This document shows positions 14,762 through 39,933 of a DNA stretch of 64,000 bases, piece by piece. The stretch's first letter is position 1. Every line of letters begins with the position of its first letter. Made by a program: the position numbers and the translations under genes. Under the pieces are notes generated by a model. That model saw only the letters and a program-made list of their open reading frames with translations, had not been told where the DNA came from and made no database searches. Source of the stretch: Betaproteobacteria bacterium Ga0077523 (GTDB lineage: Bacteria > Pseudomonadota > Gammaproteobacteria > Burkholderiales > Ga0077523); assembly GCA_001464695.1 (NCBI GenBank), contig LNDQ01000098.1:76771-140770 (forward strand), in the 5' to 3' direction.

Positions 14762-15865
14762 ATGTCTCAAGGGTCAGTTTTGCCGCCCGCGTCGGCCCCG
14801 GCGGCGGATGTTGCCGCCGCTGCCGGACGCGACCAGTCCCTGGCCGCCGATGCGGCCGGGACGAGCTTCGGCGAGGTCCTGCAGGCCCAGATGGAAAAAG
14901 GGCTCCCGCCGGCAGATACCAAGGCTGTGGAAATGCTGAGCGCCGAGCCGACGGGTGAGCTGGATCCCGGGGTGCTGGTTGCAGTGCAGCCACCCATCGA
15001 TGCTGCGCTCATGGCTGCCGCGGTCGCGACGCCCATCGCGTTGCCGACGACTCAGGTGCCGGCACCGATCTCGAATGACGGCCCGGAGCCAGTCTCCGCA
15101 CCGGAGGAGTCCCCATCATTGCCTGCGACGGCAGCCCTGCCGGCCCATGAGGCGCTCGCGCAGCGCGTCGAGCGCGCCAACGCCGATCCCAGGATCGCGC
15201 TGCCGGCGCCCGGCGCTCCCGCGGCAATCGAGCGGCGTGCCGATACCCCGCACGCGACGGCCCCTGAGCTCGAGGCGCAGGCGCCGCTACCGGCGGCCGA
15301 AGTGCGACCGCGCGACGCAGGTGCGGACGTCAGACCCATGGCGGTGGTGCAGCCGGTCATGGCGGAAACGCCGACTGCCGTGTCCTCCGGCATGGAGGTC
15401 CGGCGCGAATCGACGGCAACCCCGATCAAGGTGGAGGTCGCCCAGCCGGTGACGGCACCGGGCTGGCGCGATGCCTTCGCCGAACGGGTGACCTGGGTCG
15501 CCAACGCCCGCCAGCCCATCGCGGAACTGCAGATCAACCCGCCCCAGCTAGGACCGGTGGAGATTCGCGTGAGCATGAATGCCGACCAGGCCAACCTGTC
15601 GTTCTTCTCGCCCCACGCAGCGGTACGCGAAGCCATCCAGGCATCGTTGCCGCGACTGACCGATGCCTTTGCGGCCTCCGGCCTCACTCTGGGCAACGTC
15701 CTGGTCGGCGCCGAGTCGCAATCCGGTCAGCAGCCGGGCGAACGCGAGGCCGCCAGCCGCTTCGCCGGGACTTCGCGAGAGGCGTTCAATGAGTCTGAAA
15801 CGGTGGCCGCAGTGACCTGGGTAAGGCCCGGCGGCGGCCTCGGTCGCGTCGATCTGTTTGCCTGA
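14762..15865 (+). CDS. fliK: flagellar hook-length control protein FliK
   Basis: Pro/Ala-rich N-terminus and a conserved FliK C-terminal domain (WRDAFAERVTWVANARQPIAELQINPPQLGPVEIRVSM...ANLSFFSPHAAVREAI). ATG at 14762 is preceded by GAGG. Confidence 0.88.
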   Translation: MSQGSVLPPASAPAADVAAAAGRDQSLAADAAGTSFGEVLQAQMEKGLPPADTKAVEMLSAEPTGELDPGVLVAVQPPIDAALMAAAVATPIALPTTQVPAPISNDGPEPVSAPEESPSLPATAALPAHEALAQRVERANADPRIALPAPGAPAAIERRADTPHATAPELEAQAPLPAAEVRPRDAGADVRPMAVVQPVMAETPTAVSSGMEVRRESTATPIKVEVAQPVTAPGWRDAFAERVTWVANARQPIAELQINPPQLGPVEIRVSMNADQANLSFFSPHAAVREAIQASLPRLTDAFAASGLTLGNVLVGAESQSGQQPGEREAASRFAGTSREAFNESETVAAVTWVRPGGGLGRVDLFA

Positions 15866-27224: not shown

Positions 27225-27254
27225 GGGCTGACTGCGGTCAGCCCGCTTTCTTTC
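27225..27254 (+). terminator. hairpin terminator after slyD (overlaps the 3' end of the convergent permease gene)
   Basis: GGGCTGAC-TGCG-GTCAGCCC followed by GCTTTCTTTCC. Confidence 0.6.
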
Positions 27255-28053
27255 CGGTGAGCACCCGGATCACGGAGTCGAACGCGGCCTCGCCGGAGAA
27301 CCGCACGCACGCGAGGGTCACGGCCGCGATGGTGAAACCGACCAGCACGGTAACGTCAAGTCCCAACGAGAATTCCGGTGCGAAGCGCCCTTCGACGCCC
27401 GTAAGCAGCGCATGTTTGAGCAGGTCCACGCCGTAGGTGTACGGGTTGAGTGTCGCGACGATCCTGAGCCACTGTGGCAGCTGGGTGATCGGGTAGAGCG
27501 ATCCGCTCAGGAAGAACACCGGGAAGATCACGAAGTTCATCAGGGCGGCGAAGTTGTCGAGCGTCTTCGTGAAGGCTGCGGCGAGCATGCCGATGCCCGC
27601 GCAGGCGGCAGGCACCAACAGGAGGCCAAGCACCAGCAACGGGATGTCGATCGCGGCGAAGCGCAGGTAGCCGAGGAGCGCCAGCAACACCAGCAGCATG
27701 AGGGCCTGCAGCAGAGCTGACACGACGGCACTCAGGGTCTTGACGATAACGATCCAGTAGTGCGCGAACGGGGCGATCACCAGCATGCGCATTACGCCGG
27801 ATTCCTTGTCGTAGACCATGGTGAGCGCCGAGAGCATGGCGCCGAACAGCATGGTCATGCCGAGCACCCCGGGTGCCAGGAACTGCTGGTAGGAGAGTCC
27901 TCCCGCGCTGCCCAGCACTGCCCCGAAGCCTGAACCGATCACGAGCAGCCAGATCATGGGGCGCACCATGGAGGCGATGAGACGCGTCCGCTGGCGGCCC
28001 AGTTTCAACACTTCGCGCTGCAAGACGGCAAGGATGGGCCGCATCATGCTCAT
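27238..28053 (-). CDS. ABC-2 type transporter permease
   Basis: 271 aa with six predicted TM segments and the ABC-2 N-terminus MSMMRPILAVLQREVLKLGRQRTRL. The ATG overlaps the ATPase TGA (ATGA). Confidence 0.85.
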   Translation of the reverse strand: MSMMRPILAVLQREVLKLGRQRTRLIASMVRPMIWLLVIGSGFGAVLGSAGGLSYQQFLAPGVLGMTMLFGAMLSALTMVYDKESGVMRMLVIAPFAHYWIVIVKTLSAVVSALLQALMLLVLLALLGYLRFAAIDIPLLVLGLLLVPAACAGIGMLAAAFTKTLDNFAALMNFVIFPVFFLSGSLYPITQLPQWLRIVATLNPYTYGVDLLKHALLTGVEGRFAPEFSLGLDVTVLVGFTIAAVTLACVRFSGEAAFDSVIRVLTGKKAG

Positions 28054-28985
28054 GGGCGCGGTCCTGGAAGATCGGCGCCGGCGTGGACCCACAGGAACAC
28101 GTCGTTCAGGTTGGGCCGGCGCACGCGCATCGCCGTGGCGAGGTCACCCAGTTCTTCCTGCAACCGTGCGAGCGGCGCAGTGTCTTCGTGGGGGTGGAGA
28201 AAGAGGGCCGTGTTGCCTTCCTTCAATCCTCTGCCGAGGGTCGGTTGAGCCTGCGCCAGCAGCGCCTCCACGTCGGCGCTCTCGAACTCGACCACGTGAC
28301 GACCGAGGTTCTCCACCAGGGCGCGCGGGGCACCTTGCGTCACCAGGCGGCCCTTGCGGATGAAGGCCACGCGCTCGCAGGCGTCGGCCTCCTCCAGGTA
28401 GTGCGTGGTCAGCAGCACCGTCATGCGGTTGCGCTGGCGCAGGCCTTCGATGAAACGCCAGATGCGGCGCCGGACCGGAATGTCGAGGCCGATGGTGGGT
28501 TCGTCGAGGAACAGTACGCGTGGTTCGTGGATGACGCCACGGATGATGTCGAGAGCGCGGCGCTGCCCGCCCGAGAGCGAACCGGTCGGTGCATGGAACT
28601 TGTCGGCAATGCCGAAGAGTTCCAGCAATGCCTTTGCCCGCCGCTCGATCTCCCCACCCGTCAGGCCATAGAGCCGGCCCGCGAAGCGCAGGTTCTCCGC
28701 GACCGATAGCGTGCGATCGAGAGCCGACTCCTGGAAGACGAGTCCGATCCGGCCGCGAACGCCGACCGCATCCGCACGGACGTCGAACCCCGCCACGCGA
28801 GCCGACCCCGCGGAGGGGCGCACGAGCGTGGCCAACATGTGGATCGTGGTGGTCTTGCCCGAACCGTTCGGTCCGAGCAGGCCGAAGAACTCGCCTTCGG
28901 CGATCTCGAGATCGAGTCCGTCCACCGCAACGACCTCGCCGTAGCGGCGTTGCAGCCCCTGCGCCTCAATGGCGCAGGCCGTCAT
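28050..28985 (-). CDS. ABC transporter ATP-binding protein (ABC-2/DrrA-like subfamily)
   Basis: Walker A GPNGSGKTT, signature LSGGQRR and Walker B LFLDEPT. I trimmed the start to MTACAIEAQGL at 28985; that ATG overlaps the pqqE TGA. Confidence 0.9.
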   Translation of the reverse strand: MTACAIEAQGLQRRYGEVVAVDGLDLEIAEGEFFGLLGPNGSGKTTTIHMLATLVRPSAGSARVAGFDVRADAVGVRGRIGLVFQESALDRTLSVAENLRFAGRLYGLTGGEIERRAKALLELFGIADKFHAPTGSLSGGQRRALDIIRGVIHEPRVLFLDEPTIGLDIPVRRRIWRFIEGLRQRNRMTVLLTTHYLEEADACERVAFIRKGRLVTQGAPRALVENLGRHVVEFESADVEALLAQAQPTLGRGLKEGNTALFLHPHEDTAPLARLQEELGDLATAMRVRRPNLNDVFLWVHAGADLPGPRP

Positions 28986-30145
28986 GTCACGGGCGTGGTG
29001 TCGGCCTTCTGCGCGGACAGCAGGCGCGAATTGCGATCGTCGCGGAACACGATGGGCTTCACGTTCGGCGGCAGGGTCGGTCGATCGGCCTTCTCCACGG
29101 CCTCGGTGATGAGGTGGTGGAACGGAGAGAGATCGCAGACCGGGTCCGCATTGCGTGCGTCCCCCGTCAGCATGTACGCCTGGCAACGGCAGCCGCCGAA
29201 GTCCTTCTCTTTCTCGGGGCAGGTGCGACACGGTTCCTGCATCCAGGCGTCGCCGCGATAGGCGTTGAAACCGGGCGAGTCGTACCAGATCCACTTGAGG
29301 TCGTGCTCGCGCACATTCGGGAAGGTGAGGCCTGGCAGCATGCGTGCTTCGTGGCAGGGCAGGACCACGCCGTCCGAGGTCACGGTGACGAACAGCGATC
29401 CCCAGCCGTTCATGCAGGCCTTCGGCCGATTGGAATGGTAGTCGGGGACGACGAAGTAGACCTTCATCTTGTCACCCACCCGTTCGCGGAACTTGTTCGT
29501 GACCTCTTCGGCGCGCTGCAGCTGATCGCGGCTCGGCAGCAACTGGTCGCGGTTCTCGAAGGCCCAGGCGTAGTACTGCGTGTTGGCGAGCTCGACGTAC
29601 TCGGCGCCGAGCTGCTCCGCCATCTCCAGGATCTGCTGCGTGTGGTCGATGTTGTGACGGTGCAGCACACAGTTGAACACCATCGGGTAGTCGTACTGCT
29701 GGATCAACTCCGCGACCCGCTTCTTGAGCTCGAAGGTCTTGGTGCTGGAGAGCCAGTCGTTCATCTCTCGCGTGGAATCCTGGAACGAGAGCTGGATGTG
29801 ATCGAGACCGCCTTCCTTGAAGGCGGCGATGCGCTTTTCCGTGAGCCCCACACCGGAGGTGATCAGGTTGGTGTAGTAGCCGAGCTTGCGCGCCTCGGCG
29901 ATGAGGACCTCGAGATCGTCGCGCATGAGCGGCTCGCCCCCGGAGAAGCCGAGCTGGGTACAGCCCAACTCGCGGCCTTCGCGCAGGACCTTGAGCCATT
30001 CATCGGTGTTCAGCTCCGGGCCATAGCTCGTGTAGTCGGTCGGGTTGTAGCAGAACACGCAGTGCAACGGGCACTTGTACGTGATCTCCGCGAGCAGCCA
30101 CAGGGGGTTACCGGGGCGCTTTGGGTCTGATCCAGCCGTTTCCAT
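28982..30145 (-). CDS. pqqE: PQQ biosynthesis radical SAM peptide cyclase PqqE
   Basis: WLLAEITYKCPLHCVFCYNP (CX3CX2C) and a SPASM Cys-rich C-terminus (CRTCPEKEKDFGGCRCQAY). Confidence 0.96.
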   Translation of the reverse strand: METAGSDPKRPGNPLWLLAEITYKCPLHCVFCYNPTDYTSYGPELNTDEWLKVLREGRELGCTQLGFSGGEPLMRDDLEVLIAEARKLGYYTNLITSGVGLTEKRIAAFKEGGLDHIQLSFQDSTREMNDWLSSTKTFELKKRVAELIQQYDYPMVFNCVLHRHNIDHTQQILEMAEQLGAEYVELANTQYYAWAFENRDQLLPSRDQLQRAEEVTNKFRERVGDKMKVYFVVPDYHSNRPKACMNGWGSLFVTVTSDGVVLPCHEARMLPGLTFPNVREHDLKWIWYDSPGFNAYRGDAWMQEPCRTCPEKEKDFGGCRCQAYMLTGDARNADPVCDLSPFHHLITEAVEKADRPTLPPNVKPIVFRDDRNSRLLSAQKADTTPVT

Positions 30146-30407
30146 GAGCTACCTCCAGAAAGTCGACGACGTCGGCCCGCAGGTCGACGCCGGGAAACTG
30201 TTGCTCGAGTTCGGTGATGATGCCGTTCAGGCTGCGCGTGCCGTCCACGCGCTTCATGATCTCTCCGGAACTGCCCGGCAGTTTCACCATGCCTTCGGGG
30301 TAGAGGATCACGTGGCAGTCCTGCGCCGGTTCCCATTGGAACCGGTAGTACTTGGCGATCTCGATGGGGGCATCGTGATCGAAGGCGATTCTTTGCGGCT
30401 GGCCCAT
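30108..30407 (-). CDS. pqqD: PQQ biosynthesis peptide chaperone PqqD
   Basis: 99 aa, YYRFQWEPAQDCHVILYPEGMVKLPGSSGEIM. It overlaps the pqqE start, and its ATG overlaps the pqqC TGA. Confidence 0.93.
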   Translation of the reverse strand: MGQPQRIAFDHDAPIEIAKYYRFQWEPAQDCHVILYPEGMVKLPGSSGEIMKRVDGTRSLNGIITELEQQFPGVDLRADVVDFLEVAHGNGWIRPKAPR

Positions 30408-31126
30408 CAGAGGAGCGTCCGGTCGCCGATGCCATAGTTGATGGCCATCGCGTCGCACATGGTCCACAGCACGTCCAGTTTGAACTGCAGGATGTCGAGC
30501 GCACGCTCCTGCTGCTCGCGCGTCTTGAAGTACTGCAGCGTGACGCGCAGCCCATGCTCGACGTCGCGCCGTGCTTCGGACAGGCGCTTGCGAAAGTACG
30601 CGTAGCCGGCCTGGTCGATCCAGGGATAGTGCTGGGGCCAGTTGGCGAGCCGCTCCTTGTGGATCTCGGGGGCGAACAGTTCGGTGAGGGAAGAGCACAC
30701 CGCTTCCTGCCAGGGGCGTGTGCGGCCGAAGTTGATGTATGCGTCGATCGCGAAGCGCACGCCGGGCAGCACGTGCTTGAGCGACGTGACTTCAGCGCGG
30801 TCGAGGCCCACGGCATCGGCGAGTGTCAGCCACGCCTCGATGCCGCCCTCGTCACCCTGGGTGCCGTCGTGGTCGATGATGCGCTGGATCCACAGGCGGC
30901 GATGCTCGCGGTCCGGCATGTTGGACATGATGCCGGCATCCTTGATCGGGATCGCGATCTGATAGTAGAAGCGGTTGCAGACCCAACCCTGGATCTGCTC
31001 CTTGGTGAGCTTGCCGCTGTTCATCGCCACGTGATACGGGTGGTAGATGTGATAACGGCTGCCCTTGGCGCGCAACTGCGCCTCGAATTCTTCCTTGGTC
31101 CACGGCAGGTTCTCGGCGGCTCCCAT
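30407..31126 (-). CDS. pqqC: pyrroloquinoline-quinone synthase PqqC
   Basis: [32 protein letters not shown] and RIIDHDG. The start is MGAAENL at 31126, behind GGGGGAGAG. Confidence 0.95.
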
Positions 31127-31136
31127 GGCTCTCCCC

Positions 31137-32051
31137 CTACAAGGTGATGTCCATCCCGTCGAACGCAACCTCGATCCGGTGGCGGGTGAGTTCTGCCCGC
31201 TCGGCCGAGTCCTCGTTCAGGATCGGATTGGTGTTGTTGATGTGGATGAGGATCTTGCGGCTCGCGCGCAGCGGATCGAGCACGTCGATCATGCCACCGG
31301 ACCCCGATTGCGGCAGGTGTCCTATGTCGCGTGCTTTCTTCTTCGAGATGCCGAGCCGCACCATCTCGTCGTCGGTCCAGAACGTGCCGTCCACCATCAC
31401 GCAGTCGGCCTGTTCCAGGAACGGTTTCAGGTGCGGCTCGATTTCGCCCAACCCGGGTGCATAGAACACGTTCTTGCCGGTACGAGTGTCGGTGATGCGC
31501 ATCCCGACGTTGTCGCCCTCGTGCGGGTTGTCGCGATGTGGCGAGTAGGGCGGCGCCTTGCTCTTGAGCGGCACCGCGGTGAACGACAGGTGCTCGCCGC
31601 CGGGCACTTCGAAGCGGTTGCCCGATGCGGTGGGCAGCTGGTGCCAGTTCACGCCGCAGTAGTGCCCGAGGATGTTGAACAGCGGATTGCCGGTGGTCAT
31701 GTCCTCGCGGACCATGTCGGTGCAGAACAGTTCGAGCGGCTTGCCTTCGCGCAGCATCAGAAGGCCGGTGGTGTGATCGATCTGGCCGTCCATCAGCACC
31801 ACGGCGCGGATGCCGGTGTCGCGCAGGCCGCGTGCCGGTTGCAGTGCAGGAAAACCGCGGATCTGCTGCAGGATGTCAGGGGAGGCATTGAACAGCACCC
31901 AGTCGACGTCATTGCCGCTCACCGCGATCGACGATTGCGTGCGCGCCTGCGCCCGGACGGTGCCCTTGCGCAGGCCGTCGCAGTTCGGGCAATTGCAATT
32001 CCACTGCGGAAAGCCGCCGCCTGCGGCTGCTCCGAGAACTCGGATTCTCAT
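31137..32051 (-). CDS. pqqB: PQQ biosynthesis protein PqqB (MBL fold)
   Basis: [24 protein letters not shown]... Confidence 0.95.
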
Positions 32052-32103
32052 TCTGGCGTCTCACTTGGCGCTGCTGGGTCCCGGATGGTGAACCCGGGTA
32101 CTG

Positions 32104-32135
32104 AAAAACGAAAGCCCCGTAGACCGGGGCTTTCG
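32104..32135 (-). terminator. hairpin plus T-tract (attenuator/terminator) between pqqA and pqqB
   Basis: On the minus strand: CGAAAGCCCCG-GTCTA-CGGGGCTTTCG followed by TTTTT. Confidence 0.75.
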
Positions 32136-32152
32136 TCGGCCTGCCGCGGAAC

Positions 32153-32224
32153 TTAGCGGTTGGCGATGTACATCGTGACTTCGAAGCCGAAACGCATTTC
32201 GGTGTACTCAGGCTTGTTCCACAT
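32153..32224 (-). CDS. pqqA: PQQ precursor peptide PqqA (copy 1)
   Basis: Not in the ORF track. Hand translation gives [23 protein letters not shown], which contains the E-x3-Y cross-link motif. GGAGG Shine-Dalgarno sequence lies 5 nt upstream. Confidence 0.93.
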
Positions 32225-32432
32225 GCTGACCTCCAGATGATAGAGTTTAGAGTCTTGCGGCACGGATGCCGCCACGGTGAGCGATACCGCGACTCGCACT
32301 TCAGGTCCAGCAGGCGGCGATGGCTCGAATGATCGAGTTGCACCGTCTCCTTCCGGCCACAGTCCCGGTATCTCGGGGAGGTAGTGTCAGGGAAGGCCCA
32401 CGGGTATCCCACACAAAAATCAGCAATGTGGC

Positions 32433-32449
32433 CTCATGAATATCATGAG
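32433..32449. promoter_or_regulatory. perfect 7-3-7 palindrome CTCATGA-ATA-TCATGAG (candidate operator)
   Basis: Lies in the pqqA/tonB divergent region, 24 nt upstream of the tonB ATG. The same arms recur at 37441..37457. Confidence 0.5.
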
Positions 32450-32473
32450 TTTGGACGGTAGGGCTTTGACGGG

Positions 32474-33952
32474 ATGAATGCGCCTGCCTACGCTCGTCCC
32501 ATGGATCGAACCATTTCTGCGACCGCTCGACCCTGGCGCCCCGAAGCCGCACCCGAGTGGTACGGCGACCGGCTGTTCCTGGCAGCGCTTGCGATCTCGA
32601 TCGTCTTCCACACGCTCAACGTGATCGTGCTGCCGAAGCTGTTGAAGTCGGTCAAGTTCGTCGAGAAGCCGCCGCTCGTGGTCGAACTCATCGAGCCGAA
32701 GAAACCGGAGCCGCCGCCGCCGAAGAAGGTTGAACCGCCGCCGAAACCCAAGCCCGTGGCCGCGGTCAAGGTGCCCGAGCCGGTCGCGCGGGTCGAGCCG
32801 AAGCTCGAGGCCCGGCCCGAGTTGAAGCCGCTCCCGATTCCGGAGACCCGGCCGCAAGTGCAGCCGCAGCCGCGTGCGGAAGTGCGCCCGCAGGTGCCGC
32901 AGCAGGTCCGCCCCGAATTGCGGACGGAACCGCGCCTCGAGCCGCAGGCCGCGATCACGCCGGAGCCGATGCCGGACGTGAAGCCGCAGGTGCGCCCGGA
33001 AGTGCGTCCCGAGGTGAAGCCTGAAGTGCGTCCCGACCTCAAGCCGACTGCGCGTCCGGAAGCGCGTGTCGAACCGCGGCTGGAGGCGCGTACGCCGGTG
33101 GCACCTACCCCCGTGCCGGACGTGAAACCGACACCGCGCCCCGAGCCGCGTCAGGAGGTCCGGCCGGAAGTGCGTCCGGACGTGAGGCCTGATCCGCGCC
33201 CGCAATTGCAGACCGCGCCGACGTTGACCGCGCGCACCGAATCGCCCGTGGAAGTGCAGGTGCCGACCGCACCGCCACCGCGTCCTGAAGCGCCGACGGC
33301 ACGCGTAGAGCCGCGGCCCGAAGTGTCCGCCAGCAAGCCCGCACCCGTGGTTGCTGCACCGGCGGCGCCCACGGCGTCGGTCGCGCCGCCGGTCCCCACC
33401 GCCGCGCCCTCGGTGACGCCGCAGCAGACTGCGCCGACGGCGCGGGTGGAACCGCGGCCCGAGGTTCAGGCAGCCAAGCCAGCGCCGGTGGTTGCGGCGC
33501 CCGCGGTGGCTGCCGCGGTGGTGGCTCCACCTCCCCCGACCGCGGCGCCCGCAGTGACTGCCACACCTACGGCACCTGCACCTGCGGCGCCCACGGCCGC
33601 AAGCCAGGGCCCCGCCAAGCCTACGCCTGCTGGGGCTCCGACAACCGCTGCGATCGATACCTCTGCCTTGAAGAACTACGCGCTTCAGATCTCAATGGAG
33701 ATTCGCAAAGACCAATTCTATCCGCGGCGCGCCCGCACCATCGGCTGGCAGGGCACGACAGAGGTGCTGATCCGCATGAGCGCGGATGCCAAGGTGAAAG
33801 AGGTCACCATAGCGAAGTCCAGCGGTTACGACGTGCTCGACCAAGAGGCGCTGGAGAAGGTGCGGCGAGCGAAACACCTGCCGCCAGCGCCCGAGAATTT
33901 CAAGGACCGCGAGTTCACGGTCCTGGTGCCGATCGTCTTCAAGCTCGAATGA
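32474..33952 (+). CDS. tonB: TonB family energy transducer with a very long Pro-rich spacer
   Basis: N-terminal TM segment with the S-x3-H motif (AISIVFH), about 340 aa of (R/K/E)P repeats, and a C-terminal TonB domain (YPRRARTIGWQGTTEVLIRM...SSGYDVLDQEALEKVRRAKHLPPAP). Confidence 0.88.
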   Translation: MNAPAYARPMDRTISATARPWRPEAAPEWYGDRLFLAALAISIVFHTLNVIVLPKLLKSVKFVEKPPLVVELIEPKKPEPPPPKKVEPPPKPKPVAAVKVPEPVARVEPKLEARPELKPLPIPETRPQVQPQPRAEVRPQVPQQVRPELRTEPRLEPQAAITPEPMPDVKPQVRPEVRPEVKPEVRPDLKPTARPEARVEPRLEARTPVAPTPVPDVKPTPRPEPRQEVRPEVRPDVRPDPRPQLQTAPTLTARTESPVEVQVPTAPPPRPEAPTARVEPRPEVSASKPAPVVAAPAAPTASVAPPVPTAAPSVTPQQTAPTARVEPRPEVQAAKPAPVVAAPAVAAAVVAPPPPTAAPAVTATPTAPAPAAPTAASQGPAKPTPAGAPTTAAIDTSALKNYALQISMEIRKDQFYPRRARTIGWQGTTEVLIRMSADAKVKEVTIAKSSGYDVLDQEALEKVRRAKHLPPAPENFKDREFTVLVPIVFKLE

Positions 33953-33983: not shown

Positions 33984-34931
33984 GTGAGCACGCTCTATCC
34001 CCCACTCGAGCCCCATCGCTCGGGGCATCTCGACGTGACCGGAGGCCATCGCATCTGGTTCGAGGTGAGCGGCAATCCGTCCGGGCGGCCGGTGCTGTTC
34101 CTGCATGGCGGTCCGGGCAGTTCGACCAAGCCCGACCATCGCCGCTATTTCGACCCCGCGCACTATCGCATCGTGCTGTTCGACCAACGCGGTTGCGGGC
34201 GGAGCCTGCCGGCGGGCGGCATCGACGACAACACCACGGCGCATCTCATCGACGACATCGAGCGCCTGAGGATCGAGCTGGGCGTCGAGCGCTGGCTGCT
34301 GTTCGGCGGTTCGTGGGGCAGCACGCTGGCACTCGCCTATGCGCAGACGCATCCGAAGCGAGTGGATCGCCTGATCCTGCGTGGCATCTTCCTCGCATCG
34401 CACGCTGAACTCGACTGGTATTTCGTCGGGCTGCGGCAGTTCATTCCCGAGGCGTGGGGCGAGTTGTGGAGCGTCGCCCCCGGACTGTCATGGCCGCAAC
34501 TGGTGCGCTGGTACTACTCGAATCTTTACGGATCGCAAGCGAGCGCGGTCGCGGCCCGCTGGAGTGCGTTCGAGACGGCGGTCATGTCGATCGGCGAGAG
34601 CCAGCCGCTCGCACCCCCGGCAAGTGCCGGCGACGGCGTGCTCGCCCGTGCCCGCGTCCAGGTGCACTATCTCGCGCACGACTGTTTTCTGCGCCCCGGA
34701 CAACTGCTCGACGACATGCCGCGTATCGCGCATCTTCCCGCCAGGTTGCTGCACGGCCGACAGGATTTCGTCTGCCCGCCGTCCACCGCCTACGATCTCG
34801 CCCGCCGCTGGCCGCAGGCGCGGCTCACCTACGTGGAGCAGGCGAAGCACGCCTCGTCCCATCCGGCGCTGGAGCGGGAGCTGATCGCGGCTGCCGATGC
34901 CGCGCGCGATATCGAACGCGTTCCGGGGTGA
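33984..34931 (+). CDS. pip: prolyl aminopeptidase (proline iminopeptidase, S33 alpha/beta hydrolase)
   Basis: LFLHGGPGSS, VLFDQRGCGRS and GGSWGSTLALAYA (nucleophile elbow). Confidence 0.9.
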   Translation: MSTLYPPLEPHRSGHLDVTGGHRIWFEVSGNPSGRPVLFLHGGPGSSTKPDHRRYFDPAHYRIVLFDQRGCGRSLPAGGIDDNTTAHLIDDIERLRIELGVERWLLFGGSWGSTLALAYAQTHPKRVDRLILRGIFLASHAELDWYFVGLRQFIPEAWGELWSVAPGLSWPQLVRWYYSNLYGSQASAVAARWSAFETAVMSIGESQPLAPPASAGDGVLARARVQVHYLAHDCFLRPGQLLDDMPRIAHLPARLLHGRQDFVCPPSTAYDLARRWPQARLTYVEQAKHASSHPALERELIAAADAARDIERVPG

Positions 34932-36718
34932 GCGGCGTGAGCCTGCGCTTTCGCATCAATCTGCTCATCACGGTGCTCACGGCGCTCTTCACCGCTGCGT
35001 TGATCCACGTCATGGTCCAGGATGCGCGCCGTTCGATCCGCGAGGAGATGGAGGGTGCGAATCGCGCCACGTTGCAACTGCTGTCCACCGTCATCCGGGA
35101 TGCTCAGTTGAGTGCCAAGGCCGGGCAGGGAAGCGCGTCGCTACTGCTGTTCCTGCGGGACCTGGGGCGCGTGCGGGCTCACGATATCCGCCTGTACGAC
35201 TACGACGATCAGTTGCTGTACACGTCGCCGCCGTCGGCCTACAAGCCTGGCCGTGCCGCGCCCGCGTGGTTCATCAAGCTGGTGCAGCCGGAGATGCCGC
35301 TCATCAACCTGCCGGTCGCGGGCGGCAACGTGACCGTCACGGTCGACGCATCGCGGTCGATCCTCGACGCGTGGGACGATATCAACAACCTCATGCTGCT
35401 GATCCTGGGGTTCGTGGTGGCGGCGAACCTGCTGGTCTTCTTCTTCACGGGGCGTGCGTTGAAGCCGGTCAGCACCGTGCTCGAAGGTCTGAAGCGCATG
35501 GAACGTGGCGAGTTCGATGCGCGCATGCCACGGTTCGCGCTGCCTGAATTCGACGCCATCAGTCATACGTTCAATGGCATGGCTGATGCGCTCGCCGAAT
35601 CCCACGCCGAGAACCGTCGCCTCGCGTTGATCGCGGAACAATCGGGTGACGCAATCCTGATCCAGGATCTCGAAGGCCTCGTCTCGTACTGGAACCCGGC
35701 GGCAGAGCGACTGTTCGGCTGGACAGCGGGGGAGATCCTGGGCCGATCCGCGACGCTGATCGCGCCGCCGGATCGCCTCGACGAGTTCCGGGCCCACACG
35801 GAAACCATCCGCGCACGCGGCGTGGTCGATCACGTGGAGACGCAGCGGCTCGCCCGCGACGGGCGGTTGATCGAAGTCGCGCTGAGCGCGGCACCTCTGG
35901 TGGATCCGGCGAGCAGCACCGTGATCGGCGAGATCTGCTCGCTGCGCGACATCACCGAGGTCAAGCGCGCGCGCGAAGCGGAGGCCGAACTTGCCCAGAA
36001 TCGCCGTCTGACACAGGTGATCCAGAGCCGCCTCGAGGAGGAACGCCATGGCATCGCGCGCGAACTGCACGATGAACTCGGCCAGTGCCTCACGGCGATC
36101 AAGACCATCGGTGCGGTGATCGCCAACCGTACCGAAGGCACGCAACCGGAGATACACGAGAACGCCGAGACCATCGTTTCGGTCACCGAGCGCATGTACG
36201 ATTCGGTCCACGGCATCATCCGCCAGTTGCGGCCGAGCGCGCTGGACCATCTCGGCCTGCGCGAGACACTTGAGGAGGCGGTGGCGAACTGGCGCCGGTT
36301 GAACCCCACCATCCAATGCAGGCTCGATCTGGACGGCGCGCTCGACGCGCTCGGCGAGCGCGTCAACATCACCGTCTATCGCATCGTGCAGGAATGCCTC
36401 ACCAACATCGCGAAGCATGCAGGCGCTAGCGAGGCGTCGGTCAGCGTGAGCCACACGGGCGCGGAGCAGGATGAAAGCCTCGAGATCGTGGCGCGCGACA
36501 ACGGCAAAGGCCTCGTGGCGCGCGATCCGCGGGAAGCCGTGCGCTTCGGGCTGATGGGCATGCGCGAACGCACGGAGGCGCTCGGCGGATCGTTCGTCAT
36601 CGAGAGCGAGGTGGGCAAGGGGGTCACGGTGCGCGTGTCGATTCCGCTGGCCGGTGGTGTCGCCCGCAACGGGCTGAACCACGGAGCGGTGCGGGACGCC
36701 CGGGGCTCGCCGGCATGA
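34928..36718 (+). CDS. NarX/UhpB-type sensor histidine kinase (TM-HAMP-PAS-HisKA_3-HATPase)
   Basis: The H-box RELHDELGQCLTAIK, a PAS segment (AILIQDLEGLVSYWNPAAERLFGW) and an HATPase C-terminus. GTG at 34928 overlaps the pip TGA. ORF 34454..36718 is over-extended. Confidence 0.88.
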   Translation: MSGVSLRFRINLLITVLTALFTAALIHVMVQDARRSIREEMEGANRATLQLLSTVIRDAQLSAKAGQGSASLLLFLRDLGRVRAHDIRLYDYDDQLLYTSPPSAYKPGRAAPAWFIKLVQPEMPLINLPVAGGNVTVTVDASRSILDAWDDINNLMLLILGFVVAANLLVFFFTGRALKPVSTVLEGLKRMERGEFDARMPRFALPEFDAISHTFNGMADALAESHAENRRLALIAEQSGDAILIQDLEGLVSYWNPAAERLFGWTAGEILGRSATLIAPPDRLDEFRAHTETIRARGVVDHVETQRLARDGRLIEVALSAAPLVDPASSTVIGEICSLRDITEVKRAREAEAELAQNRRLTQVIQSRLEEERHGIARELHDELGQCLTAIKTIGAVIANRTEGTQPEIHENAETIVSVTERMYDSVHGIIRQLRPSALDHLGLRETLEEAVANWRRLNPTIQCRLDLDGALDALGERVNITVYRIVQECLTNIAKHAGASEASVSVSHTGAEQDESLEIVARDNGKGLVARDPREAVRFGLMGMRERTEALGGSFVIESEVGKGVTVRVSIPLAGGVARNGLNHGAVRDARGSPA

Positions 36719-37356
36719 GCGGCACGATCAAGGTCATGCTGGCCGACGACCACGCGGTGGTGCGCATGGGCTTCCGGCTCCTGCTGGAGGGCTCGCCCGA
36801 CATCCGTGTCGTGGCCGAAGCGGAAAGCGGCGAGGATGCGGTGCGGCGGTTCGCCGAAGTGAAACCGGACGTGGTCGTGCTCGACCTGTCGATGCCCGGC
36901 ATCGGTGGCCTCGAAGCGCTCTCCCGCATCCTGGCGCGCGAACCGACCGCCAAGGTGCTGGTGCTGACCGCCCACGAAGACGCCATGCACGCGAGGCGGG
37001 TCTTGAAAGCCGGGGCGCTGGGATACCTGTCCAAGCGGAGCGCCGCGGAAGAACTGATCCAGGCGATCCGTCAGGTGTGGGCCGGCCGGACCTTCCTGGA
37101 GCCGGCGATCGCCCAGCAACTCGCCGTGCAGCAGCTCACCGGGGAGCGCAACCCCGTGGACATGCTCTCCGAGAAGGAATTCAAGGTGTTCCTGGCGCTG
37201 GCCCGCGGCCAGAGCGTTGCCGACATTGCCGAGGTCATGTCGCTGAGCCCGCGGACCATCGGAACACATCTTTACAATATCAAACAAAAGCTTGGCGCTT
37301 CCAACTCGGCCGAGCTGGCGATTGTTGCAATGCGGCACGGATTGCTGGAGCCCTGA
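36715..37356 (+). CDS. NarL/FixJ-family response regulator
   Basis: Receiver domain (VMLADDH, VVVLDLSMPG) and LuxR HTH (LSEKEFKVFLALARGQSVADIAEVMSLSPRTIGTHLYNIKQKLG). The ATG overlaps the kinase TGA. Confidence 0.93.
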   Translation: MSGTIKVMLADDHAVVRMGFRLLLEGSPDIRVVAEAESGEDAVRRFAEVKPDVVVLDLSMPGIGGLEALSRILAREPTAKVLVLTAHEDAMHARRVLKAGALGYLSKRSAAEELIQAIRQVWAGRTFLEPAIAQQLAVQQLTGERNPVDMLSEKEFKVFLALARGQSVADIAEVMSLSPRTIGTHLYNIKQKLGASNSAELAIVAMRHGLLEP

Positions 37357-37440: not shown

Positions 37441-37457
37441 CTCATGAAAATCATGAG
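37441..37457. promoter_or_regulatory. perfect 7-3-7 palindrome CTCATGA-AAA-TCATGAG (candidate operator, or a weak terminator stem)
   Basis: Arms identical to 32433..32449. Lies 131 nt upstream of the second pqqA. Confidence 0.5.
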
Positions 37458-37588
37458 GGGCTTTTACGGGTTTTGCGATGGTTCCTGTTCCTGGGGTGTG
37501 GAGAATAGTCATCAAGCCGTGACTGCGGCTTCCAGTGCACCACCCGAAGAACTGTCCCCAGACGAACCGACCCCTGAAGGAGCTGACC

Positions 37589-37660
37589 ATGTGGAACAAG
37601 CCTGAGTACACCGAAATGCGTTTCGGCTTCGAAGTCACGATGTACATCGCCAACCGCTAA
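37589..37660 (+). CDS. pqqA: PQQ precursor peptide PqqA (copy 2, orphan)
   Basis: Not in the ORF track. It matches copy 1 at 72/72 nt ([23 protein letters not shown]) and has its own GAAGGAG Shine-Dalgarno sequence. The flanks are unrelated to those of copy 1. Confidence 0.9.
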
Positions 37661-37752
37661 TCGCGGCTGGTAGTGCTGCCGCTGCCTCGTCCAGGAGTCA
37701 TGCCTCCGGCACGGCGCGACACAAGAACAAATCGGTGTAGAGGAAGACCCGC

Positions 37753-39933
37753 ATGTTTCACCGCCCCCGGCGCTACGCCGCCCGCGCGTTCACGCGCCCG
37801 CTTGCCGCATCGCTGATCGCATGCACTCTTCCCGTGATCGGATCGGCTCAGGAAACCGCCGACGCGGGGCGCGCGTCGCCGGTGGTGATCACCGGCACCA
37901 GGACGGAGCAGAAGGCGTTCGACCTGCCCATGTCCATCGATCTCGTCGACAAGCAGCGCATCTCCGACGGCCAGCTCGGTGTCAACGCGTCGGAGGCACT
38001 GGTGACGGTGCCTGGCGTCGTGGCCAACAACCGGCAGAACTACGCCCAGGATCTCCAGATATCCATCCGCGGATTCGGGTCTCGATCCACCTTCGGGGTG
38101 CGTGGCATCCGACTCTACGCGGACGGTATTCCGCTCACCATGCCCGACGGGCAGGGTCAGGCGGCAAACATCGATCTCGCGACCGCGAAGAGCATCGAGG
38201 TGTTGCGGGGCCCGTTCTCATCTCTTTACGGCAACTCCTCGGGCGGTGTAATCAGCGTCTTCACCGAGGATGGGCCGCCGGACTTCACCGTGAGCCCGTA
38301 CGGCATGTACGGGTCGTTCGAGACATGGAAGGCGGGCACGAAGGTCGGCGGCACCTCGGGCAATGTGAACTACGTGTTCAACGTCTCGCGTTTCGAAACC
38401 AGCGGCTACCGCGACTGGAGCGCAGCCCAGCGCGACATGATGAACGGCAAGATCACGGTCACGCCGGACGACATCCAGAAGTTCACGCTGGTGGTGAACT
38501 ACCTGAACCAGCCCGATACCCAGGATCCGCTCGGCCTCACGGCGGCGCAGGTGGCGCAGAACCCGCGCCAGGCGGGTTCGGTCACCGCCACCCAGACCGC
38601 GGCGGACTACAAGGTGCGCAAGTCCATCGACAACGCCCAGGTCGGGGGCGTGTACGAGCGCAAGCTGTCCGAGGACGACATGATCCGGGGCCTGGTCTAT
38701 CTCGGTGATCGGCAGGTGACGCAATATCTCGGCGTGACGCCGGGCGCGCAGGCTCCGGCGAGCAGCGGTGGCGGGGTCATCGACCTCGACCGGACCTTCT
38801 GGGGTGTCGATCTGCGCTGGGTACACCGGACCAGCCTCGGTGCCAGGCCGCTGTCGTTCACCTTGGGTACGAACTACGATCGGCAGACCGAGCGGCGGCA
38901 GGGCTACAACAACTTCATCGGCCCGACGCTGGGGGTGCTCGGCGCCTTGCGGCGCGACGAGGACAACACGGTCTACAACTTCGATCAGTACGCCCAGGCC
39001 GAATGGCTGGTCTCCGATCGCTGGATACTGTCGGGCGGTGTGCGCTACAGCAACGTCACCTTCCGCAGTACCGACTACTTCATCATCCCCGGCACCAACC
39101 CGAACGACAGCGGCAGTCGCGACTTCGACCAACTGAGTCCGGTCGCGGCGGCACTGTACAAGCTGACGCCCACGGTGCACGCGTACGCGAGCTTCGGCAG
39201 GGGATTCGAGACGCCGACGTTCGCCGAGCTTGCCTACCAGACCACGACGGCGTCTGGCGCTGGCCTCAACAGCACGATTCAGGCGAACCGCACGCGCAAC
39301 TACGAGATGGGACTGAAGGCGCTCGTGGGACGGGATACGCGCCTCAACGCCGCCATCTTCCGCATCAATGCCGACAACGAGATCACCGTGCAACAGAACG
39401 TGGGTGGACGGTCGGTTTTCCAGAACGCCGGCCCCACGACGCGAACCGGCTTCGAACTGGCGGCGGACGCCCGTTTCAAGGGCGGCTTCTTCGCCTACGG
39501 CGCAGCGACCTACATCGATGCGACTTTCGACTCCTCGTTCACCACCTGCCCGCCCGCGCCGCCGTGCGCCGCGGCGAACGTTCCGGTGGCGGCAGGCAAC
39601 GCGATTCCCGGCATCCCCGGCTACACGCTGTATGGCGAATCGGGCTGGCGGGCGAGCTGGATGGAAACGGCAATCGAAGCGCGACGGTCCGATCGCGTAT
39701 TCGTGAACGACACCAACAGCGAGTTCGCTCAGGCCTATAACGTCTACAACTGGCGCATCAGCTTCCGCCAGGAAGTCGGCAAGGTCCGCTTCACCGAGTT
39801 CTTCCGCATCGACAACTTGCTCGACACCGCATACGTGGGCTCGGTCATCGTCAACGGCGCGAACGGCCGTTTCTACGAACCCTCGCCGGGACGTGCCTTC
39901 TACGTCGGGGCGAGCGCCGCGATCACGTTCTGA
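37753..39933 (+). CDS. TonB-dependent receptor, YncD/PqqU-like (candidate PQQ importer)
   Basis: 726 aa with a signal peptide. Plug motifs NRQNYAQDLQISIRGFGSRSTFGVRGIRLYADGIPLTMPDGQGQ and C-terminus [33 protein letters not shown]. From memory these resemble E. coli YncD; this has not been checked by alignment. Confidence 0.85.
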   Translation: MFHRPRRYAARAFTRPLAASLIACTLPVIGSAQETADAGRASPVVITGTRTEQKAFDLPMSIDLVDKQRISDGQLGVNASEALVTVPGVVANNRQNYAQDLQISIRGFGSRSTFGVRGIRLYADGIPLTMPDGQGQAANIDLATAKSIEVLRGPFSSLYGNSSGGVISVFTEDGPPDFTVSPYGMYGSFETWKAGTKVGGTSGNVNYVFNVSRFETSGYRDWSAAQRDMMNGKITVTPDDIQKFTLVVNYLNQPDTQDPLGLTAAQVAQNPRQAGSVTATQTAADYKVRKSIDNAQVGGVYERKLSEDDMIRGLVYLGDRQVTQYLGVTPGAQAPASSGGGVIDLDRTFWGVDLRWVHRTSLGARPLSFTLGTNYDRQTERRQGYNNFIGPTLGVLGALRRDEDNTVYNFDQYAQAEWLVSDRWILSGGVRYSNVTFRSTDYFIIPGTNPNDSGSRDFDQLSPVAAALYKLTPTVHAYASFGRGFETPTFAELAYQTTTASGAGLNSTIQANRTRNYEMGLKALVGRDTRLNAAIFRINADNEITVQQNVGGRSVFQNAGPTTRTGFELAADARFKGGFFAYGAATYIDATFDSSFTTCPPAPPCAAANVPVAAGNAIPGIPGYTLYGESGWRASWMETAIEARRSDRVFVNDTNSEFAQAYNVYNWRISFRQEVGKVRFTEFFRIDNLLDTAYVGSVIVNGANGRFYEPSPGRAFYVGASAAITF

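Follow-up and report, generated by a model that had tools for sequence, protein, structure and literature searches.

A second pqqA gene, identical to the operon copy, precedes a predicted PQQ importer gene at a two-copy locus conserved in Burkholderiales

Genes of the locus and the two pqqA copies

The window, that is, the whole 64,000-nt stretch of DNA from Betaproteobacteria bacterium Ga0077523 that was analysed, contains two copies of the precursor-peptide gene pqqA in inverted orientation. One copy belongs to the pqq operon and the other lies in front of a receptor gene; a TonB gene, a peptidase gene and the genes of a two-component system are placed between them. The genes and their coordinates in the window are as follows.

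28982-30145, minus strand: pqqE (Pfam Radical_SAM and SPASM)
about 30108-30407, minus strand: pqqD (NCBIfam PqqD)
30407-31168, minus strand: pqqC (Pfam TENA/PqqC)
31137-32051, minus strand: pqqB (Pfam Lactamase_B_2)
32153..32224, minus strand: pqqA1, the operon copy, 23 aa (TIGR02107, 49.2 bits on the identical peptide)
32474..33952, plus strand: TonB-family protein with a long Pro-rich spacer (TonB_C, E 4e-18)
33984..34931, plus strand: S33 prolyl aminopeptidase, pip (TIGR01249, 291 bits, cut-off 259.75)
34928..36718, plus strand: sensor histidine kinase, HAMP-PAS-HisKA_3-HATPase (Pfam), with a weak LapD/MoxY_N-like periplasmic part
36715..37356, plus strand: NarL/FixJ-type response regulator, receiver and GerE helix-turn-helix (PF00072, E 7e-30; PF00196, E 5e-15)
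37576-37582, plus strand: Shine-Dalgarno sequence of pqqA2, GAAGGAG
37589..37660, plus strand: pqqA2, the pqqU-side copy, 72/72 identical to pqqA1
37753..39933, plus strand: pqqU, TonB-dependent PQQ importer as predicted from PDB and NCBIfam matches and signature residues

Alignment and translation of the two loci confirmed the central observation of an earlier note on this DNA, namely that the window carries two 23-codon pqqA genes in inverted orientation that are identical at all 72 nucleotides. Both had been missed by the open reading frame track, as is expected for a peptide of only 23 codons. The perfect 72-bp inverted repeats are separated by 5344 nt, and a repeat search of the window returned the pair as inverted repeat I1 (82 nt at 96%). 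As the note had also stated, identity is limited to the coding sequence and the flanks differ: the match reaches beyond neither the ATG on one side nor the stop codon on the other, and the 300 nt on each side of the copies show scattered matches alone. The Shine-Dalgarno regions that it quoted for the two copies are correct.

The PqqA peptide scored 49.2 bits against TIGR02107, above the curated threshold of 20, and both copies matched PF08042 at 38.9 bits (cut-off 21.1). The segment FGFEVTMY contains the conserved Glu-X3-Tyr pair (Glu15 and Tyr19) from which PQQ is made, and the length of the peptide falls within the range of 20-40 aa. Glu15 and Tyr19 are invariant in the 52 copies from 26 loci, and dN/dS is 0.06-0.07 in both copy classes (about 0.06 for the pqqU-side class), which together indicate that copy 2 is a coding gene and no relic. 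With a good Shine-Dalgarno sequence, this low dN/dS and pqqBCDE in the same locus, pqqA2 is likely to be a functional second precursor-peptide gene. A search of the organism's own genome (4.7 Mb, 156 contigs, 87% complete) found these two pqqA copies only.

The histidine kinase is a 596-aa gene in independent assemblies. An Rfam search of the window from 27 to 42 kb gave no match at E<=1. Beyond pqqE, genes for an ABC-2 type ATPase and permease occupy 27238-29294 on the minus strand, with weak PQQ_ABC_ATP and PedC-like matches.

The receptor gene behind copy 2

The product of the gene downstream of pqqA2 matched E. coli YncD/PqqU (PDB 6v81, E 3.4e-157) and its PQQ complex (9c4o, E 1.7e-156), the next PDB family being far weaker (E 1.7e-18). 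Against NCBIfam PqqU it scored 628 bits, compared with 161 for the next family and with a strict equivalog cut-off of 1200, which it does not reach. PqqU is defined by Y/F/W99, R304 and R365, with K274 and R536 semi-conserved (PMC12124388). In our alignment, where the E. coli chain carries these signature residues at exactly the published numbers, F114, R320, R382, K290 and R553 of the window receptor align to Y99, R304, R365, K274 and R536, respectively. The protein is a receptor with a plug and a 22-strand barrel, and it is most similar to E. coli YncD/PqqU. We conclude that the window receptor is a PqqU/YncD homologue and a predicted PQQ importer.

The earlier note had correctly placed copy 2 in front of a receptor gene and had called this copy an orphan. 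Because the receptor is a PqqU homologue with all published PQQ-binding signature residues, copy 2 is better described as the first gene of a pqqA-pqqU pair. In published surveys, pqqU and the pqq genes are generally not syntenic, four Burkholderiales genomes being the exceptions noted (PMC12124388), and pqqU is reported to be constitutively expressed in P. aeruginosa (bioRxiv 10.64898/2026.04.27.721047).

Conservation of the two-copy layout

In a PF08042 search of related genomes, almost all members of the genus, and a further family as well, proved to have two divergently oriented pqqA genes at a distance of 5-6 kb. The comparative set comprised 17 loci of the genus, five distant loci found by PqqU alignment (identity of at most 53%) and five found through the palindrome described below. 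The 28 loci that were oriented by pqqB include two duplicate contigs of two others and thus represent 26 independent loci.

All 28 loci display the same gene order with small exceptions: pqqE-C-B-A, palindrome, tonB, pip, histidine kinase, response regulator, palindrome, pqqA, pqqU. The layout spans at least four families. Throughout the 26 loci, tonB always adjoins the operon copy and the regulator gene always adjoins the pqqU-side copy. Three genomes have no pqqU behind copy 2 (L003, L004 and L123), two of which (L003 and L004) also have a degenerate second palindrome, and four genomes carry two tandem pqqA copies on the pqqU side. A complete genome in one contig contributes one of the loci. 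The same regulator protein, with the locus in the same orientation, also occurs in three further assemblies, which come from activated-carbon and drinking-water-plant metagenomes. The layout recurs in the 26 related loci, which represent at least four families, and in these three assemblies; the two copies are therefore no sequencing or assembly artefact, the outcome that would have overturned the earlier observation.

A palindrome and promoter geometry common to both copies

The only sequence elements recognizably shared by the upstream regions of the two copies are a palindrome and a -10-like hexamer at nearly constant distance from it.

32433..32449, no strand: palindrome 1, CTCATGAATATCATGAG, 209 nt before the start codon of pqqA1 and 24 nt before that of tonB
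37441..37457, no strand: palindrome 2, CTCATGAAAATCATGAG, 131 nt upstream of the pqqA2 ATG
32383..32388, minus strand: putative -10-like hexamer GACACT, 44 nt beyond palindrome 1 in the direction of pqqA1
37501..37506, plus strand: putative -10-like hexamer GAGAAT, 43 nt downstream of palindrome 2

The palindrome follows the pattern CTCATGA-W3-TCATGAG (7-3-7), is perfect at both window sites and has a spacer that is always A/T. When up to two mismatches are allowed, the window has no match besides these two sites (0.16 expected by chance), and at zero or one mismatch the organism's own genome has none besides them either. Both palindromes are kept, perfect or with one or two mismatches, in the 23 loci examined, except for the pqqU-side site of L003 and L004, which has three mismatches; the intergenic sequence around them is not alignable. 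Within the order, 44 of 301 genomes contain the exact palindrome, as against two with a reversed control pattern. Twenty palindrome sites were sampled outside the genus or the locus. Sixteen of them lie 60-650 nt upstream of pqqA; the remaining four comprise one site directly before pqqU without a pqqA, one before a DUF1800-like gene and two chance matches. We found no pqqA operator or regulator of the 7-3-7 CTCATGA type described in the searchable literature.

Of the 26 operon promoters, 24 have a GA(C/G)A(A/C)T-type hexamer at +44/45; among the 24 pqqU-side promoters, 23 have one at +43 to +45. The pqqA promoters have no good -35 element, and a consensus scan found no sigma-70 promoter. The centre of the palindrome would lie about 60-65 nt upstream of the start site deduced from the hexamer, a position typical of an activator. 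Since the operator and the promoter geometry are the same at both copies, these look co-regulated. The earlier note had seen in copy 2 an independently controlled expression route; the conserved elements argue against that view, and the two copies are probably controlled together.

Palindrome 1 faces two transcription units. It ends 24 nt before the annotated tonB ATG, and a TTTGAC sequence stands 4 nt before the same ATG (window 32450-32480), so that the tonB start codon or the promoter layout may need revision. This palindrome may mainly control, or autoregulate, the operon of tonB, pip, the kinase and the regulator.

Several sites outside the two-copy layout carry the same palindrome. At L117 (G294:C4, 4021-6428) it is positioned 93 nt before pqqU without an intervening pqqA, with kinase and regulator genes upstream; evidently the operator can serve pqqU directly. 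Several stand-alone pqqA cassettes were seen in a family of 1.3-3 Mb genomes within the same order (L108, L110-L113 and L115, from G054, G108, G156 and G199). They have the palindrome about 110-140 nt upstream, and both cassettes that were inspected for it (L108 and L112) possess their own terminator. In one genome of the genus, a third perfect palindrome at L119 (G015:C25, 4069-7273) precedes, by about 120 nt, a secreted DUF1800-like open reading frame that is followed by one of 404 aa; the DUF1800/DUF1501 labels are those that we presume from the appearance of the sequences, and the DUF1800-like frame may be an extra member of the regulon. Palindrome matches rejected as chance were two in low-GC genomes, a terminator and a coding sequence, and the near-palindromes on contig C34 of the organism's own genome. 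The latter (15300-15700) are three in number, 123-132 nt apart, and fall inside the gene for a three-repeat, PsiF-like secreted protein with an FMSEC motif.

A candidate regulator

The response regulator is 76-99% identical across the loci of the module, compared with 53-92% for the kinase. Its best NCBIfam match is the UvrY/GacA family, below the cut-off of that family. Co-occurrence of regulator and palindrome was examined in twelve further genomes. The nine with an exact palindrome each encode one clear regulator orthologue (58-73% identity; next paralogue at most 49%). In two genomes with only near-palindromes upstream of pqqA (TTCATGAATTTCATGAC and CTAATGATTTTCATTAG), the orthologue is present beside pqqA. 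One genome with pqqA has neither palindrome nor regulator orthologue and displays a TGGCAC-N5-TTGC promoter instead. The presence of the regulator thus tracks that of the palindrome or near-palindrome in 12 of 12 genomes. Adjacency is not universal, because in the family of 1.3-3 Mb genomes the orthologue is encoded about 35 kb from the pqq operon. From adjacency and co-occurrence, the NarL-type regulator encoded between the copies is the most likely candidate to bind the palindromes.

The genome lacking both palindrome and orthologue is represented by L129 (G028:C32); its TGGCAC-N5-TTGC element upstream of pqqA is sigma-54-like, which suggests an alternative scheme of pqqA control.

Terminators and a 45-nt difference between assemblies

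Because the consensus terminator scan missed the obvious terminator of pqqA1, RNA folding was used in its place. Two features bear on transcription beyond the copies.

32103..32136, minus strand: hairpin with a 12-13 bp GC stem, followed by T5, between pqqA1 and pqqB (fold dG -26.1 kcal/mol, z -2.97)
37676..37677, plus strand: point at which 45 nt are missing in comparison with a metagenome contig that is otherwise identical; the missing piece is the pqqA2 terminator

The hairpin and T5 after pqqA1 represent a putative attenuator or terminator. All 25 relatives in which the operon copy was called have a hairpin behind it, and 15 of them have a run of T4-T6 as well. No terminator was detected by folding after copy 2 in the window assembly (z +0.9). 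Over 16.6 kb, a JGI metagenome contig matches the window at 100% identity, the sole difference being 45 additional nucleotides at 37676|37677 (L138, 8963-9007). The extra sequence, GAAAAAGGCTGCCTCGGCAGCCTTTTTTGTTGTCTGACTGGGGAT, consists of a hairpin and T6 and corresponds to the pqqA2 terminator. A hairpin with a T-tract follows the pqqU-side copy in nearly all relatives, and it is exactly this element that the window lacks in comparison with its four closest ones. The junction exhibits a TGC microhomology, and the absence of the 45 nt reflects either polymorphism between strains or a difference between the assemblies.

Hence the attenuator that the earlier note had described after copy 1 was recovered, whereas the contrast that it drew with copy 2 does not extend to the other assembly or to close relatives. 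Given the terminator in the near-identical contig and in relatives, the duplicated unit comprises operator, promoter, pqqA and terminator. Its position between pqqA2 and pqqU also implies that pqqU may be largely transcribed from elsewhere.

Selection and gene conversion

The operon copy of pqqA differs from the window sequence at only 0-2 of 72 nt, even in other families. In nine comparisons it showed changes at none of eight four-fold sites. In eight of the nine, four-fold change in pqqB, pip and the regulator gene amounted to 0.34-0.59 (binomial P of 0.0008-0.04 each); in the ninth, L016, the flanks were at 0.19. These comparisons indicate very strong purifying selection on the operon copy, at synonymous sites as well. 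The leader and coding sequence together fold less stably than shuffled sequence (z +1 and +2). Codons that look minor in a genome of 66% GC (CCT, CGT and three GAA) are kept in operon pqqA.

The pqqU-side copies of outgroups have changed at four-fold sites in a near-neutral manner (3/8 and 3/7). They bear a signature, C15, T36 and T42, often with A12 and A18, that is also found in several members of the genus and is absent from operon copies. At residue 3, most operon copies outside the window's clade encode Ser and most pqqU-side copies Thr. The clade, defined as the window plus the four relatives nearest to it on a tree of concatenated PqqB, Pip, HK and RR sequences, has Asn3 in both copies and has lost the pqqU-side signature, and its copies differ by 0-1 nt. 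At L014, the two copies are identical (d=0) and share a TGA stop, while the sister genome keeps 6-7 differences. Ala6 is common to both copies in L003-L006.

An old duplication without exchange should yield equal mean differences within and between genomes. The observed means are 5.96 nt within and 8.48 nt between genomes, and the observed value was reached in 0 of 20000 permutations, in a test that ignores phylogenetic non-independence. The copies are thus closer within genomes despite a duplication that predates at least four families, and they share derived states; both are characteristics of concerted evolution. Flanks within the clade have diverged by 0.19-0.57 at four-fold sites and the pqqU-side copies have not, which calls for either recurrent conversion or the same nucleotide constraint on both copies. 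Most likely, the pqqU-side copy is an old paralogue whose sequence gene conversion replaced with that of the operon copy, in the clade ancestor and independently at L014; we infer the direction of conversion from the same patterns. As the gene offers only about 19 synonymous sites, convergence on optimal codons is not fully separable from conversion. The earlier note had named gene conversion or strong selection as the cause of the identity, and the evidence points to both.

Proposed explanation and its alternatives

The explanation that we favor as a whole, and consider reasonably probable, is that of a co-regulated pqqA2-pqqU cassette whose identity with the operon copy arose from selection and conversion. 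A cassette of operator, activator-type promoter, pqqA and terminator would have been duplicated and placed before pqqU, giving a conserved locus in which one operator lies between pqqEDCBA and the divergent genes tonB, pip, kinase and regulator, and a second one precedes pqqA2 and pqqU. A single dimeric regulator would probably activate both pqqA promoters at once; the strongest candidate is the NarL-type response regulator whose gene lies between the copies. In this manner, PQQ synthesis could be coupled to production of additional precursor, which is consumed, to a dedicated TonB and to re-uptake of PQQ. In the clade ancestor, the pqqU-side copy would have been overwritten by the operon copy, after which identity may have been kept by further conversion or by equally strong selection. 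The sequence facts, their conservation and the co-occurrence of operator and regulator are direct observations; binding and activation by the regulator and co-transcription with pqqU are predicted from them.

Perfect identity is what a recent duplication or a misassembled repeat would produce, and the 45-nt indel by which the window assembly differs from another one lies right beside copy 2. Such an origin has nevertheless a close to negligible probability and is already refuted by the comparative data, because the flanks are unrelated except for operator and promoter motifs, because different families keep the two copies in this layout, as does the one-contig complete genome, and because independent assemblies from other samples reproduce it. 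The earlier note had further proposed that the inverted repeats could support inversion of the 5.4-kb segment, which would then act as a reversible regulatory switch of tonB, pip, kinase and regulator. Perfect inverted homology of 72 bp is sufficient for RecA-dependent exchange, gene conversion implies that the two copies pair, and unitigs at k=31 break 30 nt into each copy, so that orientation is unreadable in short-k graphs. We regard such a switch as highly improbable: the inverted repeats are there, but the same orientation was found in all 26 related loci and in three further assemblies of this or a near-identical strain, none of which revealed an inverted isoform. In addition, a recombinase is encoded neither by the segment, which holds only TonB, pip, kinase and regulator genes, nor by its neighbours, the pqq genes and pqqU, and both promoters lie inside the segment with the same operator, so that inversion would change little.

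Identity could also be due to purifying selection alone, both copies having independently arrived at the same codon-optimal or nucleotide-constrained sequence without conversion. Consistent with this, the operon copy stays within 0-2 nt of the window sequence even in other families where the flanks approach saturation at four-fold sites, a consensus of all copies essentially equals the window sequence, and the unstable fold of leader and coding sequence fits selection for efficient translation. We consider this account unlikely, since elsewhere the pqqU-side copies are near-neutral at four-fold sites and retain the old C15, T36 and T42 signature, since derived states are common to both copies (Asn3 in the clade, Ala6 in L003-L006, the TGA stop at L014), and since L014 has no difference where its sister genome has 6-7. 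Still less probable is that pqqA2 serves mainly as a cis-acting leader, with promoter, operator and attenuator setting the expression of pqqU and the peptide being dispensable. The lineage of L117, where the palindrome directly precedes pqqU without pqqA, would fit such a role, as would the terminator between pqqA2 and pqqU in most relatives, which resembles the pqqA-pqqB attenuator design. A dispensable peptide is, however, at odds with a dN/dS of about 0.06 and invariant cross-linking Glu and Tyr residues; moreover, pqqA2 and its own terminator persist without pqqU behind them in L003, L004 and L123, and some orphan pqqA cassettes have this operator yet no gene downstream (L108, L110-L113 and L115).

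Beyond the co-regulated pqqA2-pqqU cassette that we prefer, a larger picture can be sketched tentatively, although we think it rather doubtful. The locus may belong to a self-contained PQQ homeostasis regulon widespread in Burkholderiales, in which a periplasm-sensing kinase and its NarL-type regulator would read the status of PQQ (or of apo-quinoprotein or metal) and co-switch the precursor genes, TonB and the re-uptake receptor via the 7-3-7 operator. The operator-pqqA cassette would be a mobile module that was copied repeatedly, to orphan pqqA sites and to pqqU, and the nearly frozen pqqA nucleotide sequence might reflect a role at the RNA level in addition to coding.

Relation to known systems

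Extra and orphan pqqA genes are already known. Methylotrophs provide examples, with five copies in Methylovorus sp. MP688 and pqqA2/pqqA3 in Methylorubrum extorquens AM1; PMC11317620 and PMC9851590, citing Ge et al. 2015, describe PqqA supply as rate-limiting and the copies as differentially expressed. Like the window, these organisms have additional precursor genes outside pqqABCDE. The window copy differs in that it is fixed before a PQQ importer gene, has its operator in common with the operon copy, is nucleotide-identical to it by apparent concerted evolution, and lies inverted at 5.3 kb from it. The window receptor has strong homology to PqqU (YncD) of E. coli and P. aeruginosa, including equivalents of the signature residues; in contrast to these, it is encoded in a producer, where a pqqA and a pqq-type operator precede its gene and a TonB and a two-component system of its own accompany it. 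The design of pqqA, hairpin and pqqB known from attenuated operons recurs as a GC hairpin and T-tract after copy 1 and, in relatives and another assembly, after copy 2. At the pqqU side it is reused before a transporter gene and not before biosynthetic genes, and the copy-2 hairpin is absent from the window assembly.

NarL/FixJ-family two-component systems control quinoprotein and PQQ genes in other bacteria, for example ErbR/AgmR and EraSR in Pseudomonas and MxaYX/MoxYX in Paracoccus. The window system may be similar in kind, with a HisKA_3 kinase and a receiver-GerE regulator beside PQQ genes and a weak LapD/MoxY_N-like periplasmic domain in the kinase.

What is new here is the fixed coupling of a pqqA cassette to a PQQ importer gene, an operator common with the biosynthetic operon and linked to pqqA across the order, a candidate two-component regulator, and the documented concerted evolution of the pqqA pair. 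Regulation of PQQ synthesis, and retention or recapture of secreted PQQ by producers, are poorly understood outside Pseudomonas and Methylorubrum, and the published PqqU survey reports almost no linkage to pqq genes. The locus predicts a specific operator, a specific regulator and kinase, and co-induction of the precursor peptide, TonB and the importer. The operator-promoter-pqqA cassette and the regulator could also provide engineering handles for PQQ production strains.

The inverted tufA/tufB pair is a familiar case of concerted evolution of duplicated bacterial genes by gene conversion. Like the window pqqA genes, tufA and tufB are inverted paralogues that are identical within a genome while their flanks diverge, with a tract limited to the homologous stretch. 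The window tract differs in being only 72 nt long and in having a donor copy that is itself nearly frozen at synonymous sites. The pqqA pair offers a clean, small case of concerted evolution, with inverted copies of a 72-nt gene that remain identical, and it illustrates that synonymous-site conservation in pqqA can far exceed that of its neighbours. In the organism's own assembly (87% complete), the EF-Tu gene is cut at a contig end, and the EF-G that was found is a stand-alone paralogue.
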